NCBI GenBank assembly: GCA_965243115.1
Contig: CBDEUD010000003.1
Coordinates: 2,474,200 to 2,538,199 of the forward strand
DNA: 64,000 nt
DNA from: Gammaproteobacteria bacterium
Lineage (GTDB): Bacteria > Pseudomonadota > Gammaproteobacteria > Eutrophobiales > Eutrophobiaceae
Direction: 5' to 3'
Made by a program: the position numbers and the translations under genes. Below are positions 21,377 to 50,558 of this stretch, in pieces. Every line of letters begins with the position of its first letter. The stretch's first letter is position 1. Under the pieces are notes generated by a model. The model was not told the origin of the DNA. It ran no database searches and saw nothing but the letters and a program-made list of their open reading frames with translations.

Positions 21377-22194
21377 CGCACCCGTTTTAACCCGGTCTGC
21401 GTAAATTCACGATCGTTCAAATCGGTACGGAACTGGTAGTCACTCCAGTTCAGGTCGGTACTCTTGCCGGTGAGATGGTTGATCATGGTCATCTCACCGG
21501 CATACCAGTAACTGTCCAGGTACTGCGCGTAGCCGGTCATGGTAAGCGTCTTCAGGTGCGCATCCTTGCGGTCGTAGTACTCGACTTTCCAGGTGCGCAA
21601 CTCGTCCCGGTCCTGCCACACCACCTGGCGGCTGTAGCCGGACTTCCTGTCCGTGGGGACGCGCTCGATGACCGTGCAGGTCAACTCACCGCACGGTTCA
21701 TCACGCAGGTAGCGATACGTGTACTTCTCCAGTTCCTGGGCGCCCATGTCTTCATAGGAGAACTCACTGCCCATGAATGAACCGGAACGGTTGGCCGAAC
21801 TGATGCGCTTCACCCGTTTCAACGCCGGCAGGTACAGCCACTGGTCATCCGCTTCCACCTTGTGGGCATGTATGAGAAAAGCGGTACCCTCAACGTCGCG
21901 CGGTTCATCGAACACAAACAGACTCTTGTCGCCGTCGCCCTCCACCTCCAGCACCTTGACCCGGAGTGAGCGCGTGCTTTCCTGACCCTGCTTGTTGCGC
22001 AGGACCATGGTCTGGCGCGCCGTGAAATTGCCGTACCCCTGCGCCCGTTCGTCGGTTGCGCGGGCAATGTTCAATCCGATTTCTTCAGGAGTGGCTGCTT
22101 CCGAGGTTGATTTTTGCGGCATACCCAGGGCCAGTAGCGCTAAACAGCATGTAAACAGCACGTACTTCGACCGGACGGAATACGTAGTAGCCAT
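21373..22194 (-). CDS. Outer-membrane lipoprotein-sorting (LolA-like) family protein
   Basis: Signal peptide. Family resemblance (COG2834-like) and genomic coupling to the MMPL transporter. 4-bp overlap with the downstream gene. Confidence 0.55.
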   Translation of the reverse strand: MATTYSVRSKYVLFTCCLALLALGMPQKSTSEAATPEEIGLNIARATDERAQGYGNFTARQTMVLRNKQGQESTRSLRVKVLEVEGDGDKSLFVFDEPRDVEGTAFLIHAHKVEADDQWLYLPALKRVKRISSANRSGSFMGSEFSYEDMGAQELEKYTYRYLRDEPCGELTCTVIERVPTDRKSGYSRQVVWQDRDELRTWKVEYYDRKDAHLKTLTMTGYAQYLDSYWYAGEMTMINHLTGKSTDLNWSDYQFRTDLNDREFTQTGLKRVR

Positions 22195-22293: not shown

Positions 22294-24627
22294 TCATAAT
22301 TTTTTCCTGTCGACAGCCATTAACAGCGGAGGCAGCAAGAAAAAATCGGCCAGCAGGGCGAACAGGATCGTGCCTGTCACCATCAGGCCGAGCGACCAGC
22401 TGACCTCGAATCCGGATAACGCGAATACCAGGAAACCGGCAACCAGGACCAGGGTAGTGGTCCACAGTGCCCGACCGACGGTACGAAAAGTGTACAGCAC
22501 GGCTTCCGGCGCAGGGTGCCCGGCGCGCCGGGCTTTCAGGTATTTGCTCAGGAAATGAGTGGTATCGTCCACGATGATGCCGAACGCGATCGCGGTCATC
22601 ACGGACCCGGCCAGGCCCACCTGGCCGACCAGGTAGCCCCACAGACCAAAACTCATGGCCGCGGGCACAAAATTGGGCACCAGGCTGATTACACCCAGGC
22701 GCACGCTTTTGAAGACCAGTATAAAAATCAGTGAAATCAGGCTCATCGCTATAACAGTGGCGCGTAACATGCTGTTGATGTTGCGTTGGGACAGGTGGGC
22801 AAAGGTGATACTGACGCCGGTTGCCGCGGTGACCATGCCGGGGGTGTTTGCGCGCAGCCAGTCCTGCGCGCGCGCATCGAGTTCGCGCAACTGTTGAGAG
22901 GAAGTGTGGCCGTCGACCACGGCGGTCATGCGGGTGGCGGACTTGGCAACGTCGATACGGTTGTTGAGGTCACTGCCGAACGGCAGCGAGAATTCATAGA
23001 GCAACAGGTATTGCGCGGCGAGTTCCGCGTTGTCAGGCAGCCGGTAAAAGGCCGGGTCGTCTCCATGCATGTTCCTGTTCAGACGTTTCATGATGTCCGG
23101 GAAGGCCTGTACATGAAACACCTCGGGTTGCTCCCGGAACCATGCGGCAAAGGCATCGACGTCGCGCAGGTAGCCGGGTTCCGTGATGCCGCCTTCAGCT
23201 CCCGCCTCAAGCGAGTATTCCAGCGTTTCCATACCGGTCAGGTTTTCGAGCACGAAGTCCGTATCACGCCTGAACTGGTAACGCTCGTCAAAATACTGCG
23301 TCCAGTTATCGGTCAATTCATTGCGGGTGATGCCGGCGATCAGGACAACCGTCAGGAGGGTAAAGGACCAGAGCAGGATGGTACTGCGGGCAGTGACAAA
23401 CGCACCCAAGCGATCGAAGAATCCGGGCTGGTCAGCCGGGACCGGGCGAGCGCGCAGCGGCAGGACCGACAGCAGCGCCGGCAAAAGAGTCATGGAGTAT
23501 ATGAATGCGCACAGTACTCCGAACGCCACCAGATTGCCCAGCACATGGAACGGCGGTGAATCAGAGGAGTTCAAGGTGAGGAACCCGCCGGCAGTCGTGG
23601 CCGAGGTAAGAAACACCGGCCAGGCATTGCTGCGCAACGATTCGATAATTGCCTTATTTTTATCCAGGCCCCGGGCCACGCCTGCCAGCGCGGCCGTGAC
23701 GATGTGGATGGAATCGGCCACTGCAATCGTCATGATGATGAGCGGCACGCCCGCATTGACCGGGTTGAACACGATGCCAATCCAGCCGGCGAACCCCATG
23801 GTCGTGTTGACGGTGAACATGACCACGAGAATGGAGACCAGGGTACCGGTTACGGAACGCAGCAACAGGGCAGTTGCGACCAGTATGATGAGGAACACTA
23901 CCGGAGTCAGTTTCTCCATGTCGTCCTTGGTGGCGTCCGCGAAAGCGCGGTTCAGGACGACATCACCGGTGAGATAATAGGCCAGGTCCGGACGGCTTGT
24001 GCGCGCCTCATCCAGCAGCGCGTTGAGATGGTCGGTTATCTCAACCACTGCAGCGTCCGGGTTTTCCGGCAGGGAGAAGGTTATCGCCATGCCGGCCACA
24101 CGGCCGTCGCGGGCGACCAGGCGTCCGGCAATTTCGGTCGCGTTCAGCGCGATCTCTTCTACCCTCTGCAAGTCGGCATCGCTCAGGGACTGTGCGTCAT
24201 CGACCAGCGGTTCAACTACCAGGTCATCGCCGAATGCCTCGCTGTGGTTGTAGTTGGTCAATGAATCGACCCGGGTGGAATAAGGCGCAAGCCATGCGGC
24301 TTCGGTCAACTCCTCAACCGCTCCCAGGGTTTCCCGGGTAAACACCGAGCCCTGCCCGGGGCTGATCGCGATCAGCGCGGTATTGGATTCGGTGTACGTG
24401 GCTTCCAGGGCATCGAACGCGGCCAGTTGCGGGTTTCCTTCGTCAAACAGGCTGCGGTAGTCATTGGTGACGCCGATGAAGGGAACGCCCCCGGTCATGG
24501 CCAGCATGATCAGCGCTGCAAACGTAATAACCAGCCAGCGGCGGCCCAGGATGATATCGATGTAGCGGTCCAGCAGCAAGGGTATCTTCGTATCAGCCAT
24601 CATGCACAAATTCGGGGACAGATGCAC
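22294..24627 (-). CDS. MMPL/RND-superfamily membrane transporter (HpnN-like lipid exporter type)
   Basis: 777 aa with two 6-TM bundles separated by periplasmic loops, an RND/MMPL signature. GTG at 24627, or ATG ATG at 24603/24600. Confidence 0.75.
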   Translation of the reverse strand: MHLSPNLCMMADTKIPLLLDRYIDIILGRRWLVITFAALIMLAMTGGVPFIGVTNDYRSLFDEGNPQLAAFDALEATYTESNTALIAISPGQGSVFTRETLGAVEELTEAAWLAPYSTRVDSLTNYNHSEAFGDDLVVEPLVDDAQSLSDADLQRVEEIALNATEIAGRLVARDGRVAGMAITFSLPENPDAAVVEITDHLNALLDEARTSRPDLAYYLTGDVVLNRAFADATKDDMEKLTPVVFLIILVATALLLRSVTGTLVSILVVMFTVNTTMGFAGWIGIVFNPVNAGVPLIIMTIAVADSIHIVTAALAGVARGLDKNKAIIESLRSNAWPVFLTSATTAGGFLTLNSSDSPPFHVLGNLVAFGVLCAFIYSMTLLPALLSVLPLRARPVPADQPGFFDRLGAFVTARSTILLWSFTLLTVVLIAGITRNELTDNWTQYFDERYQFRRDTDFVLENLTGMETLEYSLEAGAEGGITEPGYLRDVDAFAAWFREQPEVFHVQAFPDIMKRLNRNMHGDDPAFYRLPDNAELAAQYLLLYEFSLPFGSDLNNRIDVAKSATRMTAVVDGHTSSQQLRELDARAQDWLRANTPGMVTAATGVSITFAHLSQRNINSMLRATVIAMSLISLIFILVFKSVRLGVISLVPNFVPAAMSFGLWGYLVGQVGLAGSVMTAIAFGIIVDDTTHFLSKYLKARRAGHPAPEAVLYTFRTVGRALWTTTLVLVAGFLVFALSGFEVSWSLGLMVTGTILFALLADFFLLPPLLMAVDRKKL

Positions 24628-24651
24628 ATCTGTCCCCGTTATTCACCATTG

Positions 24652-25818
24652 TCACCATTTTTTCGATAATTCCGAATGGGCGCTATCCGGAAGTTTGTAA
24701 CTGATGCCCTGCTTTTCATAATTGGAAATCTGGGTCATCAACTCGAAAGCATCCGGTATGTTCCCTTTGAAAAGTCTATTGTAAAGGGCTTTCCCCCGCT
24801 GCTCCAGGGCAAAGAAGAACAGGGAGCCCCAGGTATTCAGTCTGGGGTATTGAAGCTGGTCAGCGAGTTCATTCCCGATCAGCGCACGCGACAAACGGTA
24901 CACCCTGCGCACCAGCTTCTCGGAATCCGGGCCTTCCATGTTCACCAGCGTCGGCGCGGCGTTGATCAGGGTATTGGCCATGGCGATCGACTCCATGGGC
25001 GGCGGCGGTTCGCACATCAAGCCGATATTGAACAGGTGATTTGCCTGCTCTTCGGTGTGGGCAACCAGCACGTCGGGTATGCCCATCAGGTAACCTTGAT
25101 AACGCCAGATATGCATGAAACCATCCCGCTCTTCTGCGCTGATCTTCAGCAACAGCAAACGCCGGATATAGTGTAACACCCGCGCGGAGAATACCGTATT
25201 GGCCAGGCCCAGGTGCGCGGCGCTGATGGGCACCCCCCAGGCGTCGGTGTCCCAATCCGGCTGGCTGCTTATCAGCCGCCGGATTTGCGCATGCACCAGG
25301 CGCAGACGCACCGTCAGCTTCCAGCCCTCACCCTGGCGTTCGAGACCGCCGGGCAGGAACAGCTCCACCTGGTGCCGGTTGTTCTGCTTCAGCCTGCGCA
25401 CTCCCTGGTTTCCGTCGAACAGGCGACCCGTGTACAGGAACGATTTGGCGATGCCGCTGCTGAACCCTTCAATGAGGCCGGCGCCGACCAGCGATGCGGT
25501 AAACACATAAGGGAAACGGTAGAAGAGCCTTGAACCGTGCAAGCTTGCTTCCGGGTCGAACCAGTCCGGCGCAGTGTCCAGCCGCGCGAAAAACGCCCTG
25601 AGCGACTCCGGCGCGTCGCGCATTACAGTCTCGTTCTGCTCCATGGCGGCCTTTATATAGCCGGCTGATTCATCCTGACTCAAGGAGGCCATATCTTCGA
25701 CTACCGCATCAGCGTCGGGATCGCCCACAAACAGGTGAGAAACGTAAGTGGCCGCTACCTCAGGATCACGCAGCCGGGCTTTTTCATAACCTTCAACAAA
25801 ATCCGAGGGTATTTGCAT
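24652..25818 (-). CDS. DUF2236 (MpaB/rubber-oxygenase-like) family protein, putative oxygenase
   Basis: Family-level resemblance only (HxxR-rich helical protein of about 390 aa). Low confidence in function. Confidence 0.45.
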   Translation of the reverse strand: MQIPSDFVEGYEKARLRDPEVAATYVSHLFVGDPDADAVVEDMASLSQDESAGYIKAAMEQNETVMRDAPESLRAFFARLDTAPDWFDPEASLHGSRLFYRFPYVFTASLVGAGLIEGFSSGIAKSFLYTGRLFDGNQGVRRLKQNNRHQVELFLPGGLERQGEGWKLTVRLRLVHAQIRRLISSQPDWDTDAWGVPISAAHLGLANTVFSARVLHYIRRLLLLKISAEERDGFMHIWRYQGYLMGIPDVLVAHTEEQANHLFNIGLMCEPPPPMESIAMANTLINAAPTLVNMEGPDSEKLVRRVYRLSRALIGNELADQLQYPRLNTWGSLFFFALEQRGKALYNRLFKGNIPDAFELMTQISNYEKQGISYKLPDSAHSELSKKW

Positions 25819-40041: not shown

Positions 40042-41097
40042 ATGAATATCGCCGAAGCACTCCCGCCGTTTCCGGAAGGGTGGTATTTCATCGCCGACCG
40101 AAAAACCGTTCTCAAGAAAAAACTCACCCGGAAAACCTGGATGGGTGAGGAGATCATCGCCTGGTGTGACGCGGAAGGCCGGATCTGCGTGGCCGATGCG
40201 GTATGCCCGCACATGGGTTCCAGCCTGGGTCCGGAGGTGGGGGCCCGGGTACGCGACGGTTGCCTGGTTTGCCCCTTTCACGGATTTGAGTACGATGCAA
40301 GCGGCCAGTGCGTTGCCACCCCGAATGCCCCCGCGCCCAAATCAGCCAGGTTGAAAACGTACGAAACAAGAGAAATACTCGGTCTGGTGTTTGCCTGGTG
40401 GGGGAGCGGCGGACGGCTGCCGCAATGGCAGCTGCCGGAACAGCCGCACACCGGCCCGGACTGGAGCGATCTGGCGCTGGGCTTCTTCAGCTTCCCCGGG
40501 CATCCCCAGGAAACTTCTGAAAACTCCGTGGATCTGGCGCACCTGCGTTATATACACGGCTACGACAACGTACACCCGGTCGGCGATGTGTCGGTTAACG
40601 GCGCCCACCTTGTGTCCCGTTTCGACTTCAGGCGCAACCGGAAATTTGCCGGGTTGATTGACAACATCTACGATGTATCAGCCGTTACACATCTTTACGG
40701 CGTAGGCTACTCCTATGTTGAAATTCACGAGAAAACCATCGGTATGGATGCCAGATTATGGGTACTCTCAACACCCATAGACGGTACACATATTGAACTT
40801 GTGCTGGTGAGCCAGGTCAGGGAACTGCGCAAACCGAAACGGCCCATCGTGGGTTTGCGCTTTATCCCGGTGCATCTGCGCCACAGGTTACTGAACCGCA
40901 TTATACTGCGGGCGCAGATACAGGATGTCCGGCAGGACGTGATTATCTGGGGGAAAAAACAATATCGGCCACGCCCCCGCCTGAGTCAGGCGGATGGCGA
41001 GGTAATGACATACCGGCACTATTGCCGCCAGTTCTATCCGGAAACTTATCCGGAGACGGGCCGTGATGAGTTCCAGCTGAGTTCCGTTTCAGGTTAG
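40042..41097 (+). CDS. Rieske [2Fe-2S] non-heme-iron oxygenase (KshA/Neverland/SdmA-like)
   Basis: Rieske motif CPHMG...(17)...CPFHG and mononuclear-iron motif DLAHLRYIH (DxxHxxxxH). AT-rich promoter-like region upstream (39900-40020). Confidence 0.8.
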   Translation: MNIAEALPPFPEGWYFIADRKTVLKKKLTRKTWMGEEIIAWCDAEGRICVADAVCPHMGSSLGPEVGARVRDGCLVCPFHGFEYDASGQCVATPNAPAPKSARLKTYETREILGLVFAWWGSGGRLPQWQLPEQPHTGPDWSDLALGFFSFPGHPQETSENSVDLAHLRYIHGYDNVHPVGDVSVNGAHLVSRFDFRRNRKFAGLIDNIYDVSAVTHLYGVGYSYVEIHEKTIGMDARLWVLSTPIDGTHIELVLVSQVRELRKPKRPIVGLRFIPVHLRHRLLNRIILRAQIQDVRQDVIIWGKKQYRPRPRLSQADGEVMTYRHYCRQFYPETYPETGRDEFQLSSVSG

Positions 41098-41194
41098 TCC
41101 GCGCAACGCATACGTTATATTACATTAACACGAGTTTTTTGGGACAGTATTGGAGTCTCATATATATCTGAACCCCTGCATGGGAGAATACGGC

Positions 41195-42229
41195 ATGAAA
41201 CTAGGCAAACTACCCAATGCTCTGAAACGTGCGTACCGGGGGTCAGATGTCACCCGTCGAATAAAACATTTCGATGGCTGGAGCGGTCGAGCGGCGCAGG
41301 ATGGCGTCGGAGCGGACAGCTACGACCACAGCGAAACGGTGAAAGAATACTATGAGCTTTGCAACGAGTTCATGGTGTTCGGTTGGAATGAATCCCTGCA
41401 TTTTGCTCCCTTGACGCCCAATGAGACTCTGGAGGACTCCATCATCCGGCATCAGCGGTTGATGATCGCCAACCTGGAGCTGCAACAGGGCATGACAGTT
41501 GTTGATATCGGCTGTGGGATAGGCGGCCCGATGCGCCGCATCGTGCGTGAGTCCGGTGTCCGGGTTGTCGGGGTCAACAACAATGAGGTCCAGATGGAAA
41601 AGGCAAAAATGCTGAATATCGAGGCCGGGGTCGACCACATGGTTGAGTACGTTGCGTGCAGCTTTATGGACATGAGTGTCATCGGAGACAACACTTTCGA
41701 CGCAGGTTATGCAATCGAGTCGACGTGCCATGCGCCGGACAAGGCAGGCGCATTCGCGGAGATATTCCGCGTGCTGAAACCCGGGGCCCTGTTCTGGGGT
41801 CAGGAAATGTGCATGACGGACAAGTTCAATCCGAATGACGCAAGCCACCGGGCCATCCAGCAGGAACTTATGCACTATATTGCGCTGAATGAAATTGCGA
41901 CGCCGGGGGAAGTGAACCAAACGCTTGAAGCGGCGGGCTTCAGCGTCCTCAAAGGGATGGACCTGGGCGTCAGTGAGGATCAATCCACACCCTGGTACCA
42001 ACCCATGGAGACTCAGCATGGAACCCTGGACAAAGCCGTGCGTAGAATTCCATGGGGCCGCAGGGCGCTCATCGTGGCATTGAAGCTGGCCGAAACGGTC
42101 GGACTGTTCCCGAAGGGATCCACGGAAGTAGTCCGGCTCATGGACCGCACGGCACAGGCTTATGTCGCGGGCGGCAGAGCAGCCATATTCACGCCGTTGT
42201 ACTGTTTCCTGGCTCGCAAACCCCTTTAG
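41195..42229 (+). CDS. Sterol 24-C-methyltransferase (ERG6/SMT family)
   Basis: Collinear with yeast ERG6 across the protein: YYELCNEFMVFGWNESLHF (SMT motif I, YEYGWGxSFHF), VVDIGCGIGGP (SAM motif), YAIESTCHAP, VLKPGALF and the C-terminal GGRAAIFTPLYCFLARKP. SD gggagaa before the ATG at 41195. Confidence 0.85.
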   Translation: MKLGKLPNALKRAYRGSDVTRRIKHFDGWSGRAAQDGVGADSYDHSETVKEYYELCNEFMVFGWNESLHFAPLTPNETLEDSIIRHQRLMIANLELQQGMTVVDIGCGIGGPMRRIVRESGVRVVGVNNNEVQMEKAKMLNIEAGVDHMVEYVACSFMDMSVIGDNTFDAGYAIESTCHAPDKAGAFAEIFRVLKPGALFWGQEMCMTDKFNPNDASHRAIQQELMHYIALNEIATPGEVNQTLEAAGFSVLKGMDLGVSEDQSTPWYQPMETQHGTLDKAVRRIPWGRRALIVALKLAETVGLFPKGSTEVVRLMDRTAQAYVAGGRAAIFTPLYCFLARKPL

Positions 42230-42501
42230 ACCCCGATAGGGCCGGTTGGCCCTATACATGACGCCCGGTAGTTTCGGCTGCTATCTCCCTGACTGCACGT
42301 TGCGTAGAGGGGGATGCCGGATAACTGACCCGACGCCATGAGTCCAAAGCACTTGGCTTGATTGAAATTCATTCCATCGAGTGGTATAATGCGCGCGGTC
42401 AACACCTGTTTTTTTATGGCTTCCAATACCCTTGAGATTGAGTTCGGCGCAGGCAAAGGGGCGTTTTCCGATTCCCGGTTTATTAAGTCTAACGCACTGA
42501 A

Positions 42502-44496
42502 ATGATAAGTTTAGTTGACGAACTGGTACTGTTCCTCATCAACGAAGAAAGCGGTTACTTTCACCAGGTTTCAGGCTGGAAACTGCACTGCGCCCTCGCC
42601 GGCGCCGTGCTTGCGGACCTGTCAATGATCTCACGTATCGACACAGACCTGGAGTCTCTTTTTGTTGTCGACTCCACGGAAACAGGCGACCCCGTCCTGG
42701 ATTCCGCCTTGAGGAAAATCGGGGAAGAACCAACGCAACGAAGTACCCAATTCTGGATTGAACGGCTGAGCCCGCGCGCGGAATCGATCATCGATACGAC
42801 TCTGGAACGACTGGCGGAGCGTGGAATAGTGACGGAACATCAAGGCGGGTTTTGGACTATCTCGCGTACTACCTGGCAGACCCATTCCTATTCTTCTGAC
42901 GATGGAGATGAGACGGAGTTCGTCAAGACGCGACTTAGTAAGGTCATTTTCGATAACGAAATCCCTGACCCGAGAGATATTTTCCTCATCTCTCTCATCC
43001 ACACGTGCGATGTCTTTCGCTTTGTCTTCACCCTCGACGAAGCGGCGGAGGAACGTATTGCGGCCATTTCCAGCATGGACGTTCTGGGCCGCGCCATCGC
43101 GGAAGCCATCAGCCAGACCCTTGCAGGTCCGGCGCTGCAACGTGCGATTAAGTCCCGACCGATTCCGACCGTCCCGATACGCGACCTGCTGTTCAGCCCG
43201 CATATCCGCACCGGCAACATATCTGCGCTGTTTGCCGGGCTTGCTGAAAAACACGGGCCCGTGTTCAAGATTAAAGCGCCGTTTATGAAGGAAGACATGG
43301 TAATTCTCGCCGGCCTCGAGGCAAACAAATGGACGCATCGCTCCGGCCGCAACTACCTGAGAGCCAAGGACTATCTTGAAGGTTTCGTGAAGGTCTACGG
43401 CGCCGGGCGGTTGCTGCCCGCGATGGACGGCGCCGACCATTTCCGTTTGCGCAAAACCTATGGTTCGATGAATTCGCGCAAAAAACTTGAAAACCGCCTG
43501 GATGAACTATACGGGCCCGCCCGCGGCTACCTGGCGGGTTGGCAGGTCGGCGACGTCCTGACGGCGGTGGCGACTTTCCCCGAATTGATCAACTCGCAAT
43601 TCTCACCGATCAACATCGGCATCAACACCCAGGACTGTATCAAGGAAGTGATCGAATTCAAGAAGCGGGCGCTCGCCATTCACCTGTTGCGGATGCTGCC
43701 GGAATTCATGCTGTATACCCCGGGCATGAAACGCAGGAAGAAGCACTTTGCCAGGCTGGTCGAGCGGGTGCAGGCTGTGCATACACCAGCCCAGCGGGCG
43801 GGCTGTCCCCGGAATCTTGCGGACGATTTACTGAGCCTGCACGCAAGCGACCCGCAGTTTTTGCCGGAAACGGATTTGCCTTTTGCTTTTGTGTCATCGC
43901 TGCTTGCCGCCTTTTACCTCGGCAGCGCGTTGAGCTTCGCGGTGTACGCCATGGTGTCGCAGCCGGCCCTGTATCGCAGGATACAGGCGGAAGCCGCAAC
44001 GTTCTTTGCCAACGGCGAACCGGTAGGCGAGGAAGTCCAGGAATTCAATTTAGATGTCACCCACCGCCTCATCATGGAGTGCCAGCGTATGTACCCGGTC
44101 GTGCCGATGCAGGTCAGGAACGTAATGAATGCCTTCACGCTCGAAGGATATTCACCTCCTGTAGGAACGCGGCTTTTCATTGCCCAGACAGCCACGCATT
44201 ATATGGATGACGTCTTCCCGGACCCCTTTTCGTTCGATATCGACCGCTACCTCCCGGAACGCAAGGAACAAGTCGGCCACGGCTACGCGCCGTACGGGCT
44301 GGGCACCCACACTTGCCTCGGTCAGAACTGGGTAGAGTTGCAACTGGCGCTTAACCTGCTGCTGATTGCGCACTATTTCAACCTTGAGTTGTCCCCCGAA
44401 AACTACCAGCTGCGTTTCAACCCGATCCCGTCGCTGGCGCCGAGGAAGAGTCTCAAGTTCGTCGTCGCAGAAAAGCGGCGCGAACTGCCTGCCTGA
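42502..44496 (+). CDS. Fusion protein: N-terminal GPP34/GOLPH3-like domain (about 220 aa) + C-terminal cytochrome P450
   Basis: N-terminus MISLVDELVLFLINEESGYF...WKLHCALAGAVLADL matches the GPP34 family pattern (ELLLLALDDE...ALAGAVLAEL). C-terminus has P450 EXXR (ECQR), PERF-like PDPFSFDIDRY and heme ligand YGLGTHTCLG. It is a single 664-aa ORF. Confidence 0.75.
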   Translation: MISLVDELVLFLINEESGYFHQVSGWKLHCALAGAVLADLSMISRIDTDLESLFVVDSTETGDPVLDSALRKIGEEPTQRSTQFWIERLSPRAESIIDTTLERLAERGIVTEHQGGFWTISRTTWQTHSYSSDDGDETEFVKTRLSKVIFDNEIPDPRDIFLISLIHTCDVFRFVFTLDEAAEERIAAISSMDVLGRAIAEAISQTLAGPALQRAIKSRPIPTVPIRDLLFSPHIRTGNISALFAGLAEKHGPVFKIKAPFMKEDMVILAGLEANKWTHRSGRNYLRAKDYLEGFVKVYGAGRLLPAMDGADHFRLRKTYGSMNSRKKLENRLDELYGPARGYLAGWQVGDVLTAVATFPELINSQFSPINIGINTQDCIKEVIEFKKRALAIHLLRMLPEFMLYTPGMKRRKKHFARLVERVQAVHTPAQRAGCPRNLADDLLSLHASDPQFLPETDLPFAFVSSLLAAFYLGSALSFAVYAMVSQPALYRRIQAEAATFFANGEPVGEEVQEFNLDVTHRLIMECQRMYPVVPMQVRNVMNAFTLEGYSPPVGTRLFIAQTATHYMDDVFPDPFSFDIDRYLPERKEQVGHGYAPYGLGTHTCLGQNWVELQLALNLLLIAHYFNLELSPENYQLRFNPIPSLAPRKSLKFVVAEKRRELPA

Positions 44497-44580
44497 GACG
44501 GCAGGGATTCCCTGTCAGCATTTCCCGGGCGCCGGCAGGCAGCGCGGCTGCATTGGTTCCCGCTGGAGAAGCCAAACGCA

Positions 44581-47500
44581 TCAGGTCCCGCGCAGCCGGT
44601 TGACGCGCAGGTAGATTGCCAACAGGGCAGGCACACAGATCATGAGAATCGCTGTCGTAATCAGGATGCCGACCCCAAGCGTGGCCGCGAAGGGGGCCAG
44701 GAACTGGGCCTGGATGGCCCGTTCGAGAATGAGAGGCGTGAAGCCGAGAAAGGTGGTCACGGAGGTCAGCATGATGGGTCGAAAACGTTCCTTTGCGCCA
44801 TCGATAATCGCGCTCCGTGGGGGAGCGCCTTCGCTGAGTCGCTGATCGACGAAATCTATCATTACCAGGGAGTCGTTCACGACGACTCCGCTCAAGCCGA
44901 AGAAGCCGATCATGGACGTCGCGCTCACGGGCACACCCAGCACCCAATGCCCCAGGATCGTGCCGATGATGCCAAACGGAATGATGGCCATGACAATGAT
45001 CGGCTTGCTGTAGGAGCGCAGGGGAATGGCCAGCATGGCAAACATAAACAGCAACACGAGTATAAAACTGCGGAACAGCGCGCCCAGCGATTCAATCTGC
45101 TGTTGCTGTTCACCCCCGTATATGTAGGTCAGGCCGGGATTGGCGGCTGACAGGTCAGCGAGGATGGAATCCGCCAGGATGCTGTTTGCTTCATTAGCGG
45201 AAATCACAGCCGGGTCCACTTCAGCGATCACGGTGACGACGCGCTGGCCGTCCCTGCGCCGAATTTCCGGAGGGGAAAAACCCGTGTTCAAGCGCGCGAC
45301 CTGGGTAAGCGGCACTTCCGCCCCGCCCGGGGTGCGGATCAGGTATGCCTCAACGTCGGTCATGGCGTCGCGTTCATCCTTGGGCAGGCGGACATAGACC
45401 CGGACTTCTTCCCGGTCTCGCTGCACCCGCAGGGCTTCGGCGCCGAAGAATGCCGCGCGTGCTTGCACGGCCAGGTCTTCCAGCGTGAGTCCGAGTGTGC
45501 GCGCCTCCTCCCTCAACTCCAGTTGTATCTCCCTGACACCCGGCGCGTGGTCGGAGCGTATGTCATACACGCCCTCCAGTCCGCGCAATTCGCTGACCAC
45601 CGAACCTGCTATTTGGACGAGACGGTCCGGGTCCGGATGAGAAAGCACCGCCTCAACGGGACTGCCGAAGTCGACGACATCTCCGCTGATGGCAATGCTG
45701 CGCACGTAGGGCAGGATACCCACCTCCTCCCTCCAGGCTTGCGCGACATCTACCGTGGAGATATCTCGTTGCTGCGCGCTCACGAGCTTGAATTCGATGC
45801 CGGCAACGTTGGCTTCAGGGTTCAGCGTGAGTTTCGGTAACAATCCCCCACCCTCAACGCGAGGTTCCCGGCCAACGGTGACGACGACTCCCGAGAGCAG
45901 GGGGGGCGCTCCATCAGCCTGGGTCCCAGAGAACCGGGCAACGACGCGTCGCCCCGCCTTCTCCAGTTCCCTGGCCACCTCGTGCGTCCTGCTCGCGGTA
46001 GTCCCATCCGGCATCTCAAGGCTCGCGTTCACGAAGTCGCCTTCGATCACGTCGGCGTAAGTAGTCATCACGATACCTGCCGGCAACAGGGAGATGCTCA
46101 GGACGAGCATGCCGACCGCGACCGCCATCACCACTGCCGGCTGTTGTGTTGCAAATCGGAGCGATCGGTCCAGAGGTCCTTCCACGAACCTGTTCAATAC
46201 GCGATCAACGTAGCGCTGGGTGCGCCAGAAAAACCGCTCAACCGGACTGGTGGGCGTCCAGTCCGGACCGTGCAGGTGAGAGAGGTGGTTGGGAAGTATG
46301 AAGAAAGCATCGACGAGGGAGATCAACAGCATGGCGATGACGACTATCGGCAGCGCCTTCCATATTTCACCGATGCCCCCGGGCACGAAGAGTACGGGCG
46401 TAAACGCGGCGATGGACGTGAGCACGGCAAACGTCAGGGGCTTCTTGATCCGCCGAACGCCGCGGATTGCGGCCGCGACTCCCGGTATGCCCTGCTGCCG
46501 CTCGTGATGGATGTGCTCGGCCACGACGATGGCGTCGTCGACAATGATACCGATGGCAAGGACGAACACGAACAGGGAGACGTTGTTGAGTGAGAGGTCA
46601 AATGCCAGCATGACGGCCAGGGCGCCGATCCCCGCAGTGGCGAGTCCGACCGCGACCCATAACGCCAGCCGTATTTCGAGGAACAGCGCCAGGGCGATAA
46701 GGACGAGCATGAGCCCCAACGAGCCGTTCTTAAGCAACATGTCGACCCGCTCCGAATAAGTCTGGGTATCGTCGTTCCAGATAGAGATTTCCACGCCTTC
46801 GGGCAGGGATGGCGCAATGACGTTTGCCACGTGTTCGTGCACCGCCGCGGCGACAGCCATCACCGGTTCACCTTCCGCCCGGAAGACCTCGACAAAGGCT
46901 GCCGGCTTACCGTCGTAGCGCACAATCAGGTCATTGTCGCGAAAGCCATCGTGCACTTCTGCAATATCGCTGAGGCGCACCACGGTCCCGTCATTGCGAC
47001 TGAGAACGACAAGATTCTCAAAGTCCTGCTGATCATATCGCCGGCCGAGGGTGCGCACGCGCACTTCGGTATCCCGCGTCTTGATACTGCCGGCCGACAG
47101 GTCGAGGGAACCGCGACGCACCGCGTCGGCGACATCATCCAGTGTGAGTCCCAGGGCGCGCAGACGGCGCAGCGGTACTTCAATCGATATCTCGTAGTCC
47201 GACGTGCCGCTCGTCTCGACGTTCGATACTGCGGGCAGCGCAGCAAGATCATCCTCAATCTGGTAAGCCAGTTCCTTCAGCGATCGCCTTGGGATATCGC
47301 CATACACGACAAGACGGATGATGCTCGTGCGGGTGGACAATTTGGTAATCTCGGGACGCTCGGCCGCGCCGGGAAAGGACTGGATACGGCTGACTGCTGA
47401 CTCTACCTGGTCCAATGCCTGGTCAATATCCGTACCCGACCTCATTTCAACGCTGATGGATGCTATCCCGGGGGCAGCCACCGAGCGAATCGATTTAACG

Positions 47501-47760
47501 TCGTCCAGGGCTTCGACCTGTTCCTCAATCTTGACGACAATCGAATCTTCCACCTCCTCCGGGCTGGCGCCCGGATAGGCCATCGACACTTCAATCATGT
47601 TGAAGGGGATAGGCGGCCAGGCCTCCCGCTCAAGGCCGGTCAGCGATACCAGCCCCGCGGCGATGATGGCCAACATCAACAGGTTGGCGGCAACGCCATT
47701 GCCGGCCATGTAGGCGATCGGTCCCGGCCGTTCGCCGCCGATAAGATCCCTGGAATTCAC
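44581..47760 (-). CDS. Efflux RND transporter permease subunit
   Basis: 1059 aa, 12 TM with two large periplasmic loops, GIIVDDAIVVAEHI motif. ATGA overlap with the upstream adaptor gene. Confidence 0.9.
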   Translation of the reverse strand: MNSRDLIGGERPGPIAYMAGNGVAANLLMLAIIAAGLVSLTGLEREAWPPIPFNMIEVSMAYPGASPEEVEDSIVVKIEEQVEALDDVKSIRSVAAPGIASISVEMRSGTDIDQALDQVESAVSRIQSFPGAAERPEITKLSTRTSIIRLVVYGDIPRRSLKELAYQIEDDLAALPAVSNVETSGTSDYEISIEVPLRRLRALGLTLDDVADAVRRGSLDLSAGSIKTRDTEVRVRTLGRRYDQQDFENLVVLSRNDGTVVRLSDIAEVHDGFRDNDLIVRYDGKPAAFVEVFRAEGEPVMAVAAAVHEHVANVIAPSLPEGVEISIWNDDTQTYSERVDMLLKNGSLGLMLVLIALALFLEIRLALWVAVGLATAGIGALAVMLAFDLSLNNVSLFVFVLAIGIIVDDAIVVAEHIHHERQQGIPGVAAAIRGVRRIKKPLTFAVLTSIAAFTPVLFVPGGIGEIWKALPIVVIAMLLISLVDAFFILPNHLSHLHGPDWTPTSPVERFFWRTQRYVDRVLNRFVEGPLDRSLRFATQQPAVVMAVAVGMLVLSISLLPAGIVMTTYADVIEGDFVNASLEMPDGTTASRTHEVARELEKAGRRVVARFSGTQADGAPPLLSGVVVTVGREPRVEGGGLLPKLTLNPEANVAGIEFKLVSAQQRDISTVDVAQAWREEVGILPYVRSIAISGDVVDFGSPVEAVLSHPDPDRLVQIAGSVVSELRGLEGVYDIRSDHAPGVREIQLELREEARTLGLTLEDLAVQARAAFFGAEALRVQRDREEVRVYVRLPKDERDAMTDVEAYLIRTPGGAEVPLTQVARLNTGFSPPEIRRRDGQRVVTVIAEVDPAVISANEANSILADSILADLSAANPGLTYIYGGEQQQQIESLGALFRSFILVLLFMFAMLAIPLRSYSKPIIVMAIIPFGIIGTILGHWVLGVPVSATSMIGFFGLSGVVVNDSLVMIDFVDQRLSEGAPPRSAIIDGAKERFRPIMLTSVTTFLGFTPLILERAIQAQFLAPFAATLGVGILITTAILMICVPALLAIYLRVNRLRGT

Positions 47761-48971
47761 TTTACCGGGCCAGCCTTGGTGCTGACCAGCATGTCTTCCA
47801 CGGCAAACTGGATACCGCCGGTGATTACCGCCTGCCCGCTTTCCAGGCCGCCGGTCACGAATACCTCGTCATCGGCGCGCTGCAGCACCTGTACCGGGAC
47901 GATACCTACCCTGCCGCCGGGGTTCACCACCCACAGTTCATTGCCGGGCTGCAATGCGGCGCGCGGCGCCCGGAAGTAATTCTCCGGCGCAGCTCCCGTA
48001 ATCTCCACCTCCACGAACTCACCCAGCAACAGCGGCGGACCGGCGCCGGCCGCGGCGGAAACGCCAACCGGGATGCCGGCGCTGAACGGATCCGGCACGC
48101 GTACCACCACGTCTATGGTACGCGTCAGTTCATCTACGGAGGTCTCGCCCCGGTCAACATAGCCTTTCCAGGCATATTTCCCTGCGCCGTAACGGACCGC
48201 CACCAGCGCCTGCACCCGCTGCTCCCCGTCGCCCGCCTGAAGTTCCCACAAGCCGGGGATCAGGGCCGCATCGCTGTCGGACAGGGGCACGACCACTTCC
48301 ACGGCAGCGGATGCAAACAGCCGGCCGACGGTCTGGCCCGCCATCACGATCTGCCCGGCGTCCACGGATTCCTCGCGCACATGGCCGTCGAAGGGCGCAG
48401 CCACCCGGGTCCTGGACAGCGCCAGCCTGGCGTCGGCCAGCAGGGCTTCGGCGCGTTTCAGTTCGGCGCGCGCGGCTTCCAGTTGCGGTTCTCTCAGGGT
48501 AAGGGGACTGACACCGGCCTGACCGGCCCCATCCCCCTGCCGGCCGGAGTAACGTTCGTACTCGGCGCGGGCGATGGCCGCCTGTTCCTGTTCCTCCAGC
48601 AAGGCCACCTTGCGCGCCGCGAGATTGGCCTCCGCTTCCTGTACCCGGTACAGGTAGTCCGCTTCTTCGATACGGAACAGCGTCTGGCCCGCGTGTACCC
48701 GTCCTCCGCTCTGGAACCCGGCGTCCACCCAGACGATCCTGCCGCCGACCTGCGGCGCGACATCGACCTCGGCGCCCGCCCTGACCGTGCCGGCGCCATA
48801 TACCGGGATGGCGCCTGAACCTGCCAGCACCGTTCCGGTCTGCGCATACGGGATTTGCGGTGGCGGTTCGACGCGCTCCGGTTCCGGCGCACGTGAAACC
48901 AGGAAAGACGCCAAAGCCACGGAACCGGCGATAATGACAACGGCGATGAGGAAACTGGATATGCGGGACAT
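47757..48971 (-). CDS. Efflux RND transporter periplasmic adaptor (membrane fusion protein)
   Basis: N-terminal TM anchor, coiled-coil hairpin, and lipoyl/beta-barrel domains. Position between the OMF and the RND permease. Confidence 0.85.
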   Translation of the reverse strand: MSRISSFLIAVVIIAGSVALASFLVSRAPEPERVEPPPQIPYAQTGTVLAGSGAIPVYGAGTVRAGAEVDVAPQVGGRIVWVDAGFQSGGRVHAGQTLFRIEEADYLYRVQEAEANLAARKVALLEEQEQAAIARAEYERYSGRQGDGAGQAGVSPLTLREPQLEAARAELKRAEALLADARLALSRTRVAAPFDGHVREESVDAGQIVMAGQTVGRLFASAAVEVVVPLSDSDAALIPGLWELQAGDGEQRVQALVAVRYGAGKYAWKGYVDRGETSVDELTRTIDVVVRVPDPFSAGIPVGVSAAAGAGPPLLLGEFVEVEITGAAPENYFRAPRAALQPGNELWVVNPGGRVGIVPVQVLQRADDEVFVTGGLESGQAVITGGIQFAVEDMLVSTKAGPVK

Positions 48972-48977
48972 GTGGGT

Positions 48978-50558
48978 CTACTCCGTGGTGTTGGCAAGCA
49001 TACGCTCAGGTTCTGTATGGGTTGCGTTACTCTGCTTGGCAGCACCCCGGTCCCGGGCGGTCCACGCGCCTCCCAGGGCGCGGTGCAACGCCAGACGGGC
49101 GTAACCCAGGTCGCGCTCCGCCGCCGCCAGGCCGGATTGCGCACCCAGCAGGTTTTGCGCCGCGGTCAGGAAAGCTTCATATTCGCCCACGCCGGAAACA
49201 TAGCGCTGCTCCTGCAACGCGTTTTCAGCCTCGGCCTCTTCTGCCAGCGAGGCCAGCAGGGAATGGCGGCGGTGGCTGGCCTCCAGCCGCGCCAGGGCGG
49301 CCTCAACCTCCTTGACCGCAGTAACGACGCTGCGCCCGTAGGCGGCGGCGGCCTCGTCCAGCCTGGCCTCGGCGAGTTCGACATTGCTGCGCAACCGTGC
49401 TCCCTGGAATACCGGACCCAGCAGGTTGAAGCTCAGGTTGCGGAACCATTGGTCCGGGTCGAACCATTCACCGCCTTCCGTGCTCTGCAATCCGATGGAA
49501 CCGTACAGGGACAGGCTCGGAAACATATCGGCGCGGCGGGCGCCGACCGTGTAGCGCGCCGCTTGCATCCGCTTTCTTGCCGCGCTGACATCCGGACGCT
49601 GGACCAGCAGGTCGGCCGGAATACCGGCCGGTACCGGTTCCAAGGCAGCGGCAGGAGTCAGGGTATCGGGCAGCATGTCCTTGAGATCCGAACGGTAACC
49701 ACCCAGGAGCACCCAGAGTCTGCCCTGCGCATCCGCCAGCAGCGCTTCAATCTGCGGCAGCTCGGCTTGCGCGTTACGCAGGTTCTGGCGGGCAGAGTAG
49801 AGAGCGAGCGTGTCGATCCGGCCCCGGTCGTAACGAAATTCCGCCAGCGACTCGCGTTGCTTGAAAATTTCCACGTTTTCGCCTGCCAGCTTCTGCTGCC
49901 GGCGCAAATCGACGATTTCCAGGTAGGTCCGCACGGTTTCCGCCAGCACCCCCATGCGGGCAGTCAGGAAATCCGCTTCGGAAGCCGACCGCTCCGCCCC
50001 CGCGGCAAGCGCATCGTTGCGGTTGCGGCCCCAGAAATCGAGTTCGTAGGAAAAGTCCACTCCCAGGGTGTAGGTAGTCAGGTCAAGCCGGTCCGGCAGT
50101 TCGATGCCGAAGTCGCTGTACACGTCGGGACCCAGCCCCACCTCATCCAGTTGCGCGGCGATGCCGGCGTTGGTCGGTACATCAATGTCGGTGATGTCAG
50201 CCGAAGGCTGCAGCAAGGGAAACGCCGGGGCCTTGACGATGCGTTCCCGCGCCCTGGCCTGGTCGACACGGGCAACCGCTTCGGCCAGGTCGAAGTTCGA
50301 TTCCAGCGCCGTCTCGATCACACGGTCGAGAACCGGATCGGCGAACGACTTCCACCACTCCAGCGGCTCGTATGCCCCGCCGGTTTCACTTCCGGCGTAC
50401 GCGTCAGGCAGGTCCGCAAACGTTTCGTCAGCTTCGGGAGCCAGGTCGATGAGGTTCGTTTTCAGGGCGCAGGCGGAAAAGAGGCAGCAGGCGACGACAG
50501 CAAACAGCATCACCGGAACCCGCCTGGATAAGGTCGACCTGACTGACACCTGTCTCAT
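48978..50558 (-). CDS. Efflux outer-membrane factor lipoprotein (NodT/OprM family)
   Basis: Lipobox LFSAC, two TolC-like repeats, 526 aa. First gene of an OMF-MFP-RND operon (CzcCBA-like order). Confidence 0.85.
   Translation of the reverse strand: MRQVSVRSTLSRRVPVMLFAVVACCLFSACALKTNLIDLAPEADETFADLPDAYAGSETGGAYEPLEWWKSFADPVLDRVIETALESNFDLAEAVARVDQARARERIVKAPAFPLLQPSADITDIDVPTNAGIAAQLDEVGLGPDVYSDFGIELPDRLDLTTYTLGVDFSYELDFWGRNRNDALAAGAERSASEADFLTARMGVLAETVRTYLEIVDLRRQQKLAGENVEIFKQRESLAEFRYDRGRIDTLALYSARQNLRNAQAELPQIEALLADAQGRLWVLLGGYRSDLKDMLPDTLTPAAALEPVPAGIPADLLVQRPDVSAARKRMQAARYTVGARRADMFPSLSLYGSIGLQSTEGGEWFDPDQWFRNLSFNLLGPVFQGARLRSNVELAEARLDEAAAAYGRSVVTAVKEVEAALARLEASHRRHSLLASLAEEAEAENALQEQRYVSGVGEYEAFLTAAQNLLGAQSGLAAAERDLGYARLALHRALGGAWTARDRGAAKQSNATHTEPERMLANTTE

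Follow-up and report, generated by a model that had tools for sequence, protein, structure and literature searches.

A window of 64,000 nucleotides from a Gammaproteobacteria bacterium of the family Eutrophobiaceae (GenBank assembly GCA_965243115.1, contig CBDEUD010000003.1, positions 2,474,200 to 2,538,199 of the forward strand) carries a gene in which a GPP34 domain, the domain of eukaryotic GOLPH3 and Vps74, is fused to a cytochrome P450. Genes for proteins of this architecture (GPP34_L) are among the most prevalent symbiosis-associated genes of demosponge microbiomes, and the only published interpretation of these proteins is that of a secreted effector that binds phosphatidylinositol 4-phosphate (PI4P). 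We found that the fusion belongs to a gene cassette that consists of the fusion itself, an ERG6-type sterol C-24 methyltransferase (SMT), a KshA-type Rieske oxygenase, a resistance-nodulation-division (RND) transporter of either the AcrB or the MMPL/sterol-sensing-domain (SSD) type and, often, an FAD oxidoreductase resembling CrtI and HpnE. The conserved synteny of the fusion with SMT, Rieske, and RND genes is unreported in the literature searchable here, and points to sterol modification rather than to host manipulation. In our judgement it is moderately likely that the fusion is the P450 component of a horizontally mobile cassette for sterol tailoring and trafficking, located in the cytoplasm and tethered to the membrane or to a transporter.

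A recurrent cassette around the fusion gene

The neighbourhood of the fusion was compared in 80 loci (the gene with 10 kb on either side) from GTDB species representatives, which covered Gammaproteobacteria, many Dehalococcoidia, Acidimicrobiales, Gemmatimonadota, Binatia, Paracoccaceae, and Thermoanaerobaculia. For an unbiased census, open reading frames (ORFs) were called greedily, compared all against all with BLASTP, and grouped by single linkage. Only four neighbour families were recurrent: the SMT (59 loci), the Rieske oxygenase with a KshA_C domain (54), an RND transporter of the MMPL/Patched/SSD kind (∼827 aa, HAE3/HpnN type; 52), and an FAD oxidoreductase similar to amine oxidases, CrtI, and HpnE (34). 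The next most frequent family was present in just 12 of the 80 loci. When the count was restricted to the 60 loci with complete 10-kb flanks, the SMT was found in 47, the Rieske oxygenase in 53, and an RND transporter of any type in 48, and only 3 loci had none of the three. The distance between SMT and fusion had a median of 46 bp, and the order and strand of the genes varied between phyla. In a reciprocal test, the SMT was used as the anchor in the JGI/GenBank metagenome collection. This yielded 30 cassette-type SMT relatives, all with sponge-metagenome accessions, and of the 18 loci with a length of at least 12 kb, 11 had the fusion no more than 10 kb away. The first-pass annotation of this sequence had proposed sterol chemistry because of the SMT and Rieske genes next door, and the linkage it relied on proved to be conserved across phyla and in two independent collections.

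The type of transporter differed between lineages. In diderm lineages, the Chloroflexota-type MMPL protein is replaced by an AcrB of the type found in the window or by a second MMPL/SSD type, which in Binatia lies directly between the SMT and the Rieske and fusion genes. Orthologs of the window's AcrB adjoin the fusion at 68-69% identity (Gemmatimonadota L060, Thermoanaerobaculia L080, L084; L numbers denote individual loci) and at 59% identity in L086, although the fusions of L084 and L086 are just 42% and 37% identical to that of the window. The gene for the outer-membrane efflux protein (OEP) of the pump is likewise adjacent to the fusion in L084, L086, and L089. With respect to ancestry, the fusion of Dehalococcoidia locus L004 was 74% identical to a Binatia and 71% to a Gemmatimonadota homolog, versus 69% to that of another Dehalococcoidia locus (L079); cross-phylum identity was thus at least as high as identity within the class. 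The identity matrices of fusion, SMT, and Rieske oxygenase co-varied (Spearman 0.63-0.69, with pairs that are not independent and p-values that are therefore meaningless). Together, these sequence comparisons indicate that the cassette has been exchanged horizontally and co-inherited.

In the window itself, the Rieske and SMT genes are located directly upstream of the fusion on the same strand (Table 1). The SMT would qualify as such by its S-adenosylmethionine (SAM)-dependent methyltransferase core and its Sterol_MT_C domain. Its alignment with yeast ERG6 extends from end to end (326 aa, 36% identity, E=2e-71) and is to be taken as a lead only; in this comparison the protein retains the SAM-binding motif LDVGCG(V/I)GGP and the motif YAIE(A/S)TCHAP, with FGWNES in Region I where ERG6 has YGWGSS. 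For the Rieske protein, the best PDB matches were structures of KshA, the 3-ketosteroid 9-alpha-hydroxylase (4qdc and 2zyl, E ∼1e-19). Its ligands are intact, both for the [2Fe-2S] cluster (CPHMG...CPFHG) and for the KshA-type non-heme iron (ENSVDLAHLRYIH, QDVIIW). We also considered SdmA, the sterol C-4 methyl oxidase, as an identity for this protein, and rejected it: model NF052579 gave 31.8 bits against a cutoff of 600, and the match was to the Rieske domain only.

Membership of the whole GPP34-P450 family in the sterol cassette was rejected, because distant members with a canonical I-helix have other neighbours. The linkage claim is therefore limited to the clade of the window protein and its 37-42% identical relatives. 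Among the distant members, fusions were located directly upstream of genes for a sulfotransferase and an acyltransferase_3 protein, for a kinase of the EcKL/APH type, or for a MacB/FtsX permease (L081 8360-12439; L082 1962-5205; L083 535-1584 and 10001-14485). EcKL is the ecdysteroid-kinase-like family of Pfam, and these conjugation and export partners hint at conjugation of steroids or lipids in other branches of the family.

Some further variation was seen around and within the fusions. In L086 (572-11998) two fusion copies bracket an OEP-MFP-AcrB operon (MFP, membrane-fusion protein), and tandem or nearby paralogous copies are also present in L049 and L063. Among the domain variants, P0129 (872 aa) is a triple-domain protein of the form GPP34-GPP34-P450, and P0186 has the form GPP34-GPP34. 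In several Dehalococcoidia loci, a further Rieske gene of the LigXa_C type lies beside an amidohydrolase gene, ∼3 kb upstream of the fusion (for example L004 5590-6876, minus strand); its product is 28-29% identical to the KshA-type Rieske protein. A lipoprotein similar to LppX/LprAFG was found at 12 fusion loci (for example L016 18290-19093, minus strand). In mycobacteria, proteins of this family carry lipids, and the lipoprotein would thus be a further lipid-handling component in the Chloroflexota version of the neighbourhood.

Architecture and domains of the fusion protein

The GPP34-P450 protein is a genuine fusion and not a frameshifted gene pair. Pfam model PF05719 (GPP34) matched residues 4-205 with 125 bits (E=5.4e-36, cutoff 29.1) and was covered from position 1 to 200 of its 201 positions, and PF00067 (p450) matched residues 414-638 with 108.7 bits (E=4.2e-31), a match that reached back to residue 307 with the P450 models of NCBIfam. 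The division proposed in the first-pass annotation, with GPP34 up to residue ∼220 and a P450 from ∼230 to 664, was borne out by these assignments (GPP34 4-205, P450 ∼222-664), and the N-terminal similarity to GPP34 on which it depended was significant in the profile search. The same annotation had raised the possibility that a frameshift at about 43170-43200 joined two separate genes, an artefact of assembly or sequencing. A split GPP34/P450 gene pair does occur in L089, and cytP450 genes near short GPP34 genes were reported by Ferreira et al. On the other side, a word-indexed search of 5.8 billion proteins gave 1,947 hits for the fusion protein, and the best 120, which were inspected, all combined PF05719 with PF00067 in 654-686 aa at 57-96% identity, many of them on Mb-scale contigs; the architecture is common to over 120 clusters (90% identity). 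When 1.84 billion representatives were scanned exhaustively with HMMER, 356 proteins had E<1e-30, and ∼50 of these, each representing a 50%-identity cluster, could be aligned from end to end at identities down to 26%. The same continuous architecture is present on many independent Mb-scale long-read chromosomes from several phyla, and a 29-sequence family alignment crosses the linker without a break. Moreover, the split pair of L089 lies on a contig of 7x coverage and is itself the likelier artefact. With one ORF in the window and this distribution elsewhere, the artefact is effectively refuted and its probability can be neglected.

An AlphaFold2 model calculated from the family alignment was confident for both domains (whole-chain mean pLDDT 89.8, pTM 0.87), with the lowest-confidence block at residues 211-220 of the linker (pLDDT 67). 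Since a confident P450 of 440 residues alone would hardly exceed a pTM of ∼0.66, we infer that the predicted arrangement of the two domains relative to each other is also fixed.

The architecture had appeared to the first-pass annotation as one not known to be characterised. It was in fact described in January 2025 as GPP34_L, that is GPP34 plus cytochrome P450 in one polypeptide, and has never been studied biochemically (Ferreira et al., Microbiome 13:4, PMC11706023). The window protein has the same Pfam domains and falls in the same length class without any structural difference, and is thus a member of this described family. In the published survey, 604 of the 780 genomes of sponge symbionts encoded GPP34, and none of those of 85 free-living relatives did. 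The 656 GPP34_L proteins constituted 98.9% of the long GPP34 proteins and came from 14 of the 16 GPP34-carrying symbiont phyla. They were restricted to sponge symbionts, where they reached, for instance, 65% of the gammaproteobacterial and 80% of the Dehalococcoidia genomes, and were expressed in situ (PMC11706023). Rare fusions listed there join GPP34 to a Rieske domain in 2 genomes and to an ABC ATPase in 5. Its authors examined flanking genes for the short GPP34 form only, gave no biochemical function, and proposed that GPP34 proteins are secreted as effectors, attach to PI4P of the host, and thereby block the maturation of phagosomes. The text of PMC11706023 contains none of the terms "sterol", "methyltransferase", and "signal peptide". 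What our analysis adds is the cassette linkage, the split of the family into clades by the I-helix, and the acidic charge of the GPP34 domain. The loci closest to the window fusion (96% identity) are from sponge-associated Gammaproteobacteria metagenome-assembled genomes (MAGs) that include SB0675_bin_28 (L003), and PMC11706023 lists an SB06xx bin among the symbionts of Ircinia ramosa. The lineage of the window is thus probably sponge-associated as well. Distant members came in part from TARA samples, and public annotation of the family reads merely "cytochrome P450".

The GPP34 domain matched the GOLPH3 structures 3kn1 and 9qpq (E=4e-5 to 6e-5). Conservation was scored in an alignment of 78 proteins from more than five phyla that form the clade of the window protein, and all counts out of 78 below refer to this clade. 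The domain is strongly acidic, with a net charge of -19 in the window protein and a clade median of -20 (range -24 to -12), compared with a median of +5 for the attached P450 domain and +1 for the same region of human GOLPH3. Residues W26, W85, R88, R92, and R144 are conserved. In human GOLPH3, residues W81, R90, R171, and R174 are those of the PI4P pocket. Only the first has an equivalent, W26 (75/78). R90 corresponds to A33, with V, A, I, or T in the clade (V/A/I in 73/78) and no Arg or Lys among these; R171 corresponds to E94 (E/D in 77/78) and R174 to I97 (I/V in 75/78). The last two positions follow a 10-residue indel, a GOLPH3 loop that the window domain lacks, and an alternative anion site might be built from R88, R92, and R144, which makes the loss of the pocket probable rather than certain. 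The description of this domain as a lipid-headgroup-binding one in the first-pass annotation is therefore not supported, given one pocket residue kept out of four and a charge of about -20 versus +1.

Other GOLPH3 features are retained. The protein belongs to the same PF05719 family and has a predicted helical fold with a beta-hairpin, whose strands (residues 110-113 and 117-120 according to DSSP of the AlphaFold2 model) align with the hairpin region of GOLPH3. Its hydrophobic tip is nearly invariant (G115 78/78, F117 73/78, W118 74/78, T119 74/78, and L120), as expected of the solvent-exposed hairpin of the GOLPH3 type, for which membrane insertion has been proposed. The differences from GOLPH3/Vps74 thus lie in the three exchanged pocket positions, the missing loop, the charge, and the fusion to an enzyme. 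No signal peptide, twin-arginine motif, or transmembrane helix was found in the window protein, in which the first GPP34 helix begins at residue 4 and hydropathy maxima coincide with buried core helices such as the I-helix. The domain ends ∼15 residues before the Pro-rich motif IPxxxGLPxLGN of the P450. In eukaryotic microsomal P450s, an N-terminal transmembrane anchor precedes this motif. The likeness is a functional analogy only: GPP34 occupies the position directly N-terminal to the motif, but is a soluble, acidic, folded domain of ∼200 residues without a hydrophobic helix. A parallel with fusions of P450s to their redox partners was drawn by Ferreira et al. (PMC11706023). Such proteins (P450 BM3/CYP102, CYP51-ferredoxin) do combine a P450 with a second domain in one polypeptide; however, the GPP34 fold binds no known redox cofactor, and neither Pfam nor NCBIfam detected a flavodoxin, FAD/NAD, or ferredoxin domain in residues 1-221. 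We therefore rejected an electron-transfer fusion.

For the P450 domain, a family profile built from 29 members was compared with the PDB. Residues 224-655 aligned with residues 9-445 of Methylococcus capsulatus CYP51 (McCYP51; 228 bits, E=2e-66), which implies that the domain is complete, and the Pro-rich motif aligned with McCYP51 residue 9. Other CYP51s scored 168-184 bits and CYP120A1 199 bits, so that CYP51 was the best-scoring solved family and CYP120, just 30 bits lower, came next. The nearest named free-living standalone relatives are Herpetosiphon proteins annotated as "Cytochrome P450 120". By Foldseek, CYP184A1, McCYP51, BM3, CYP725A4, and CYP120 were all found at ∼1e-16 to 1e-15 with TM values of ∼0.8 (0.81 for both CYP184A1 and McCYP51). 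The heme core looks functional and has the elements that characterise the P450 superfamily. E526, R529, R582 of the PERF region, G599, H603, and C605 are invariant in the 29-sequence alignment, and P597, G599, G601, H603, C605, L606, and G607 of the heme loop were found in 78/78 clade members; the ECQR and YGLGTHTCLG motifs named in the first-pass annotation correspond to E526-R529 and the Cys605 loop.

The I-helix is different. The acid-alcohol pair, which is not obligatory for P450 membership, is missing, and A469-A470-F471-Y472-L473-G474-S475 aligns with A-G-H-H-T-S-S of CYP51. The clade consensus is A-S-V-Y-L-G-D (Y472 77/78, L473 74/78, G474 77/78), and distant members of the fusion family retain the canonical AGxD/ET helix. 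Because the consensus is fixed over 78 proteins from more than five phyla, it is a character of the clade and not a sign of decay. Judging from sequence, the fixed Y-L-G would imply a non-standard mode of proton delivery or oxygen activation, from which reaction and regiochemistry cannot be inferred. The earlier annotation had noted the lack of AGxDTT correctly, and had concluded that the P450 is not CYP51-like. That inference does not hold, since the I-helix of CYP51 is non-canonical too and no solved family scored higher than CYP51; what does hold is that the protein is not a member of CYP51. P450 nomenclature requires at least 40% identity to a named CYP51 for membership, and identity to CYP51 structures was 19-20% in the Foldseek alignments (single-sequence phmmer E-value against CYP51, 5e-20). 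CYP51s are further marked by the B'/C-loop signature YxxF/LxxPxFGxxVxF/YD and the I-helix signature G(Q/H)HT/SS. In the former region AYRIMTPIFGRGVVFDA of McCYP51 aligned with YLEGFVKVYGAGRLLPA of the window protein, which keeps an F, a Y in place of F, and two Gly; in the latter AGHHTSS is opposed to AAFYLGS. Membership was rejected on these grounds. The natural fusion of McCYP51 with a ferredoxin (PDB 6mcw, 7jj1, 7snm) resembles the window protein in the whole-domain match, the non-canonical I-helix, and the presence of a fused domain on a bacterial P450, but its ferredoxin is C-terminal whereas the domain fused in the window protein is N-terminal and without cofactor.

Proposed function and alternative explanations

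The synteny with SMT, Rieske, and RND genes, a P450 nearest to CYP51, the KshA-like Rieske oxygenase, and the Sterol_MT_C domain together favour sterol modification. Other published fusion partners of GPP34, the Rieske domain and the ABC ATPase, are likewise cytoplasmic cofactor-dependent proteins, which we counted in favour of the same reading. We infer a cytoplasmic, membrane-proximal sterol-tailoring P450 with GPP34 as a targeting or adaptor module. On the cytoplasmic side of the bacterial membrane, the enzyme would oxidise a sterol that may come from a cluster of oxidosqualene cyclase (OSC), CYP51, and ERG24 in the symbiont itself or be taken from the host; the neighbouring SMT would methylate the sterol side chain, and the RND pump would move the sterol. 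GPP34 would act as a non-catalytic targeting module in the place of the microsomal anchor. Tethering of the P450 to the membrane would probably rely on the hydrophobic hairpin of GPP34, on its binding to a membrane protein, or on both, rather than on a PI4P pocket as in GOLPH3. The Y-L-G fixed in the I-helix may serve unusual oxygen activation or proton delivery.

Several observations weigh against this proposal. The sterol role is deduced from family resemblance and synteny, and fold similarity did not discriminate between P450 families, so that CYP51 was not singled out. About one third of the cassette-type SMT genes have no fusion nearby (beside these, only unrelated housekeeping genes and no core sterol genes were found), and the distant fusion members occur in contexts other than the sterol cassette. 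No dedicated ferredoxin or reductase was among the recurrent neighbours in the 80-locus census, and AcrB-type pumps are generic efflux machines. Finally, the acidity of the GPP34 domain (∼-20) argues against simple electrostatic binding to anionic bacterial membranes, which weakens the anchor reading and leaves its mechanism uncertain.

This acidity is accommodated by a more specific proposal, to which we assign a low probability: GPP34 may be a protein adaptor rather than a reader of lipid headgroups, and may dock oxygenases (the P450, rarely a Rieske protein) or an ABC ATPase on lipid transporters. Golgi membrane enzymes have basic cytosolic tails, to which GOLPH3/Vps74 binds. By analogy, the acidic domain could dock on a basic surface at the cytoplasmic face of AcrB-type, MMPL/SSD, or MacB/ABC transporters and form a transport-coupled, sterol-oxidising metabolon, which would fit the RND, MMPL, and MacB neighbours and the GPP34-ABC-ATPase fusion. 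If so, a cassette present in most demosponge symbiont lineages would remodel the common sterol pool of host and symbiont, and could account for part of the "unconventional" side-chain-alkylated and oxidised sponge sterols that serve as the animal biomarker 24-isopropylcholestane.

Three other functions were weighed against sterol tailoring. The published view holds that GPP34 proteins, the long form included, are secreted effectors that bind PI4P on host phagosomes and block phagolysosome maturation, with the P450 as an accessory. It draws on the restriction of GPP34 to symbionts (604/780 versus 0/85 genomes) and its expression in situ, and on the binding of PI4P by eukaryotic GOLPH3 as cited there (PMC11706023), and the W81-equivalent Trp kept in 75/78 clade members agrees with it. 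However, the protein has no signal peptide, Tat motif, or transmembrane segment, with a GPP34 helix starting at residue 4, and a heme protein that depends on cytoplasmic reductants would be an odd secreted effector. The fusion is also present in Chloroflexota and Actinobacteriota, phyla that are not noted for effector translocation. The model would need a heme enzyme to be exported without a signal, and PI4P to be bound by a domain of about -20 (versus +1 in GOLPH3) that has non-basic residues in all 78 clade members at the positions aligned with the three pocket arginines. It also leaves the cassette unexplained, in which the fusion stands in tight synteny with membrane pumps and with cytoplasmic enzymes that depend on SAM, NAD(P)H, or Fe-S clusters. 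We therefore disfavour the effector model for the long form and regard it as improbable.

Detoxification is unlikely too, but accounts for more of the neighbourhood. Here the P450 would perform phase I reactions and the RND pump efflux of lipophilic sponge metabolites such as terpenoids, alkaloids, or sterol-like toxins, and SMT and Rieske oxygenase would add further modifications without a specific role in sterol biosynthesis. The RND pump is indeed the most persistent neighbour and stays with fusions of just 37-42% identity, multidrug efflux permease models give the AcrB type its highest scores, and distant members beside a sulfotransferase, an EcKL/APH-type kinase, and a MacB-type exporter resemble phases II and III of xenobiotic metabolism. 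Against this stand a methyltransferase with the specific Sterol_MT_C domain and end-to-end alignment to ERG6, a KshA-like Rieske oxygenase, a Chloroflexota transporter of the Patched/sterol-sensing/HpnN-like and not of the multidrug type, and the long-term co-inheritance of the cassette. Catabolism of imported host sterol as a carbon source, as in actinobacteria with a side-chain P450 (e.g. CYP125) and KshA/KshB, would bring a KshA-like Rieske protein, a P450, and a lipid transporter together in the same way. Yet a SAM-consuming C-methyltransferase makes no sense in such a pathway, no recurrent family in the neighbourhood census corresponded to KstD, HsaA-D, KshB, or side-chain beta-oxidation, and AcrB/OEP pumps export rather than import. 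We consider catabolism very improbable.

Sterol tailoring can be related to what has been reported on sponge symbionts. Eight of 10 assayed symbiont SMTs methylate desmosterol, and two from Aplysina aerophoba symbionts build the 24-isopropyl side chain, one of which is not part of a de novo sterol cluster (Brown et al. 2023, PMC10070321). The contigs of assayed SMTs (Ga0209021_1000146, LXNJ01000389, LXNJ01004423) did not turn up in our pattern-limited metagenome scan. Of 537 MAGs of Ircinia symbionts, 115 in ten phyla carried OSC-CYP51-ERG24 clusters, with Dehalococcoidia, Gammaproteobacteria, Binatia, Gemmatimonadetes, and Nitrospiria among the phyla and classes, and "scattered" SMT copies were reported as well (Kelly et al. 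2022, PMC9531527); the latter resemble the cassette-type SMTs that lie without a fusion among housekeeping genes. Since the carriers of these clusters overlap with the fusion-carrying lineages, the substrate may be endogenous bacterial sterol as well as host sterol. Compared with the known bacterial sterol gene sets (core sterol gene (CSG) clusters, SdmA/SdmB, SMTs, and the bacterial sterol transporters BstABC), the cassette occurs in the same hosts and bacterial classes, is likewise horizontally transferred, and also combines an ERG6-family SMT, a Rieske oxygenase, and an RND-type transporter. It differs in lacking OSC, a true CYP51, ERG24, and SdmB, and neither its Rieske protein (31.8 versus 600 bits for SdmA) nor its transporter (30 versus 1400 bits for BstA) is an equivalog. 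GPP34-P450 is not mentioned in PMC9531527 or PMC10070321, and no paper that links it to sterols was found in the literature searchable here.

The linkage thus joins two separately reported features of sponge symbionts, GPP34 proteins and horizontally transferred sterol genes, and offers a directly testable alternative function for GPP34_L. It names candidate enzymes for unexplained oxidative and alkylating steps of sponge sterol chemistry, and bears on the question of whether biomarkers of the 24-isopropylcholestane type record sponges or their bacteria. In addition, a large P450 clade is set apart by the fixed Y-L-G of its I-helix, and its oxygen chemistry is probably unusual.

Other features of the window

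Table 1. Coordinates of the fusion gene, its domains and motifs, and associated features (positions in the window).
Feature	Position	Strand	Basis or remark
GPP34-P450 fusion gene (GPP34_L family), 664 aa	42502..44496	+	single uninterrupted ORF; Pfam GPP34 + p450
GPP34 domain, residues 4-205, non-catalytic, strongly acidic	42511..43116	+	PF05719; net charge
Predicted beta-hairpin, residues 110-120, conserved hydrophobic tip G115-x-F117-W118-T119-L/I120	42829..42861	+	DSSP of AlphaFold2 model; alignment
Interdomain linker, residues 206-221	43117..43164	+	no secondary structure; variable in alignment
Complete cytochrome P450 domain, residues 222-664, from invariant P222, CYP51/CYP120-related	43165..44493	+	family profile versus PDB
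I-helix segment, residues 465-476, SSLLAAFYLGSA	43894..43929	+	acid-alcohol pair missing
ExxR motif, E526-C-Q-R529	44077..44088	+	invariant in 29 family and 78 clade sequences
Heme-thiolate loop, P-Y-G-L-G-T-H-T-C605-L-G	44290..44322	+	clade alignment
Sigma-70-type promoter-like site, TTGAAA-17-TGGTATAAT, extended -10 (TG)TATAAT	42362..42390	+	11/12 consensus positions, with TG
KshA-type Rieske non-heme-iron oxygenase	40042..41097	+	Rieske + KshA_C
Sterol C-24 methyltransferase homolog (ERG6 family)	41150..42229	+	Sterol_MT_C 60 bits, E=2.5e-16, cutoff 21.7; Methyltransf_11
AcrB-type RND permease, convergent with fusion	44581..47760	-	ACR_tran E=5e-168
Membrane-fusion (HlyD-type) protein of RND pump	47757..48971	-	HlyD_3, HlyD_D23; 67% homolog in L060
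Outer-membrane efflux protein of RND pump	48978..50558	-	OEP E=5.6e-43
Possible distal part: DUF1302-like and LolA-like carrier genes	20102..22194	-	DUF1302 weak, E=1.4e-5; LolA_like E=1.7e-63; downstream of MMPL gene
Possible distal part: MMPL/Patched/SSD RND transporter, 18 kb off	22294..24627	-	MMPL, Sterol-sensing, Patched domains
Possible distal part: mpaB/Lcp-type oxygenase	24652..25818	-	MPAB_Lcp_cat E=3.7e-16; upstream of MMPL gene

The promoter-like site is located ∼110 nt upstream of the fusion ATG, inside the 272-nt gap between SMT and fusion. Its -35 and extended -10 elements are identical in the window and in two gammaproteobacterial relatives, L001 and L002, although one of these has an 80-nt deletion and the other a 30-nt insertion around them. 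The conserved 110-nt leader was unstructured (z=+2.3) and had no Rfam match, and thus gave no sign of a regulatory RNA; no terminator-like sites were found in 39700-44800. The G+C content of the RND pump operon (44001-50000) is 0.61-0.66, above the window average and above the 0.56 of the Rieske-SMT-fusion block, a contrast which suggests that pump operon and Rieske-SMT-fusion block differ in their histories.

The distal genes of Table 1 have relatives at fusion loci elsewhere. Homologs of the MMPL protein lie directly upstream of Rieske and fusion genes in Binatia (L062 and L074, 61-63% identity) and 2 kb from the fusion in Paracoccaceae L077 (48%), where a homolog of the LolA-like protein (59%) is also present; mpaB homologs were found in fusion loci L010 and L075 (45-48%) and in L118 (46%). 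The gene set at 20102-25818 (minus strand) resembles an envelope-spanning lipid-trafficking system. We rejected orthology of this MMPL protein with that of the Chloroflexota cassette (24-26% identity); it matches the transporter of the Binatia/Paracoccaceae type. Among the larger ORFs of the window that were scanned (∼15 smaller ones excluded), which include genes of the methylerythritol phosphate (MEP) pathway and for a polyprenyl synthase, none encodes OSC, CYP51, or ERG24.

A tRNA-Pro(CGG) gene (37334-37410, plus strand) separates the polyprenyl synthase gene from the block of AhpD-like, Rieske, SMT, fusion, and RND genes, and is a possible integration site of a horizontally acquired cassette. 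Adjoining the cassette, 37481-38086 (minus strand) encodes a 200-aa protein with amphipathic coiled-coil matches to apolipoprotein A1/A4/E and apolipophorin-III below the curated cutoffs, and a homolog was seen only in the closest relative, L001. On these matches it could be a lipid-droplet or lipid-binding protein. The AhpD-related gene (38183-39256, minus strand; NCBIfam NF041238 "AhpD_rel_CFYUT", E=6e-83) contains an in-frame stop at 38525-38527, exactly within C-F-Y-*-T, after which the frame runs on for ∼113 codons. It is probably read through with selenocysteine, judging by this motif, to give a (seleno)protein of ∼357 aa, and is liable to be split by ORF callers.

Elsewhere in the window, 7993-9549 (minus strand) encodes a ribosomal protein S2 of 518 aa, twice the usual length, with the S2 domain at residues 22-237. 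Its tail consists of an acidic stretch followed by ∼20 copies of AKTPAKT(A/T)AKAP, similar to histone H1 and AlgP, and the corresponding 36-nt tandem repeat (8060-8397) explains the extreme AT skew there. A t44 leader RNA (Rfam RF00127, 49.5 bits) is located just upstream of S2 at 9526-9631 (minus strand). At 54524-57710, genes for a circularly permuted ATP-grasp protein and an alpha-E domain protein lie beside a proteasome-subunit homolog on the opposite strand (PF00227, E=1e-9), presumably an operon of the bacterial proteasome-like "Anbu" type.

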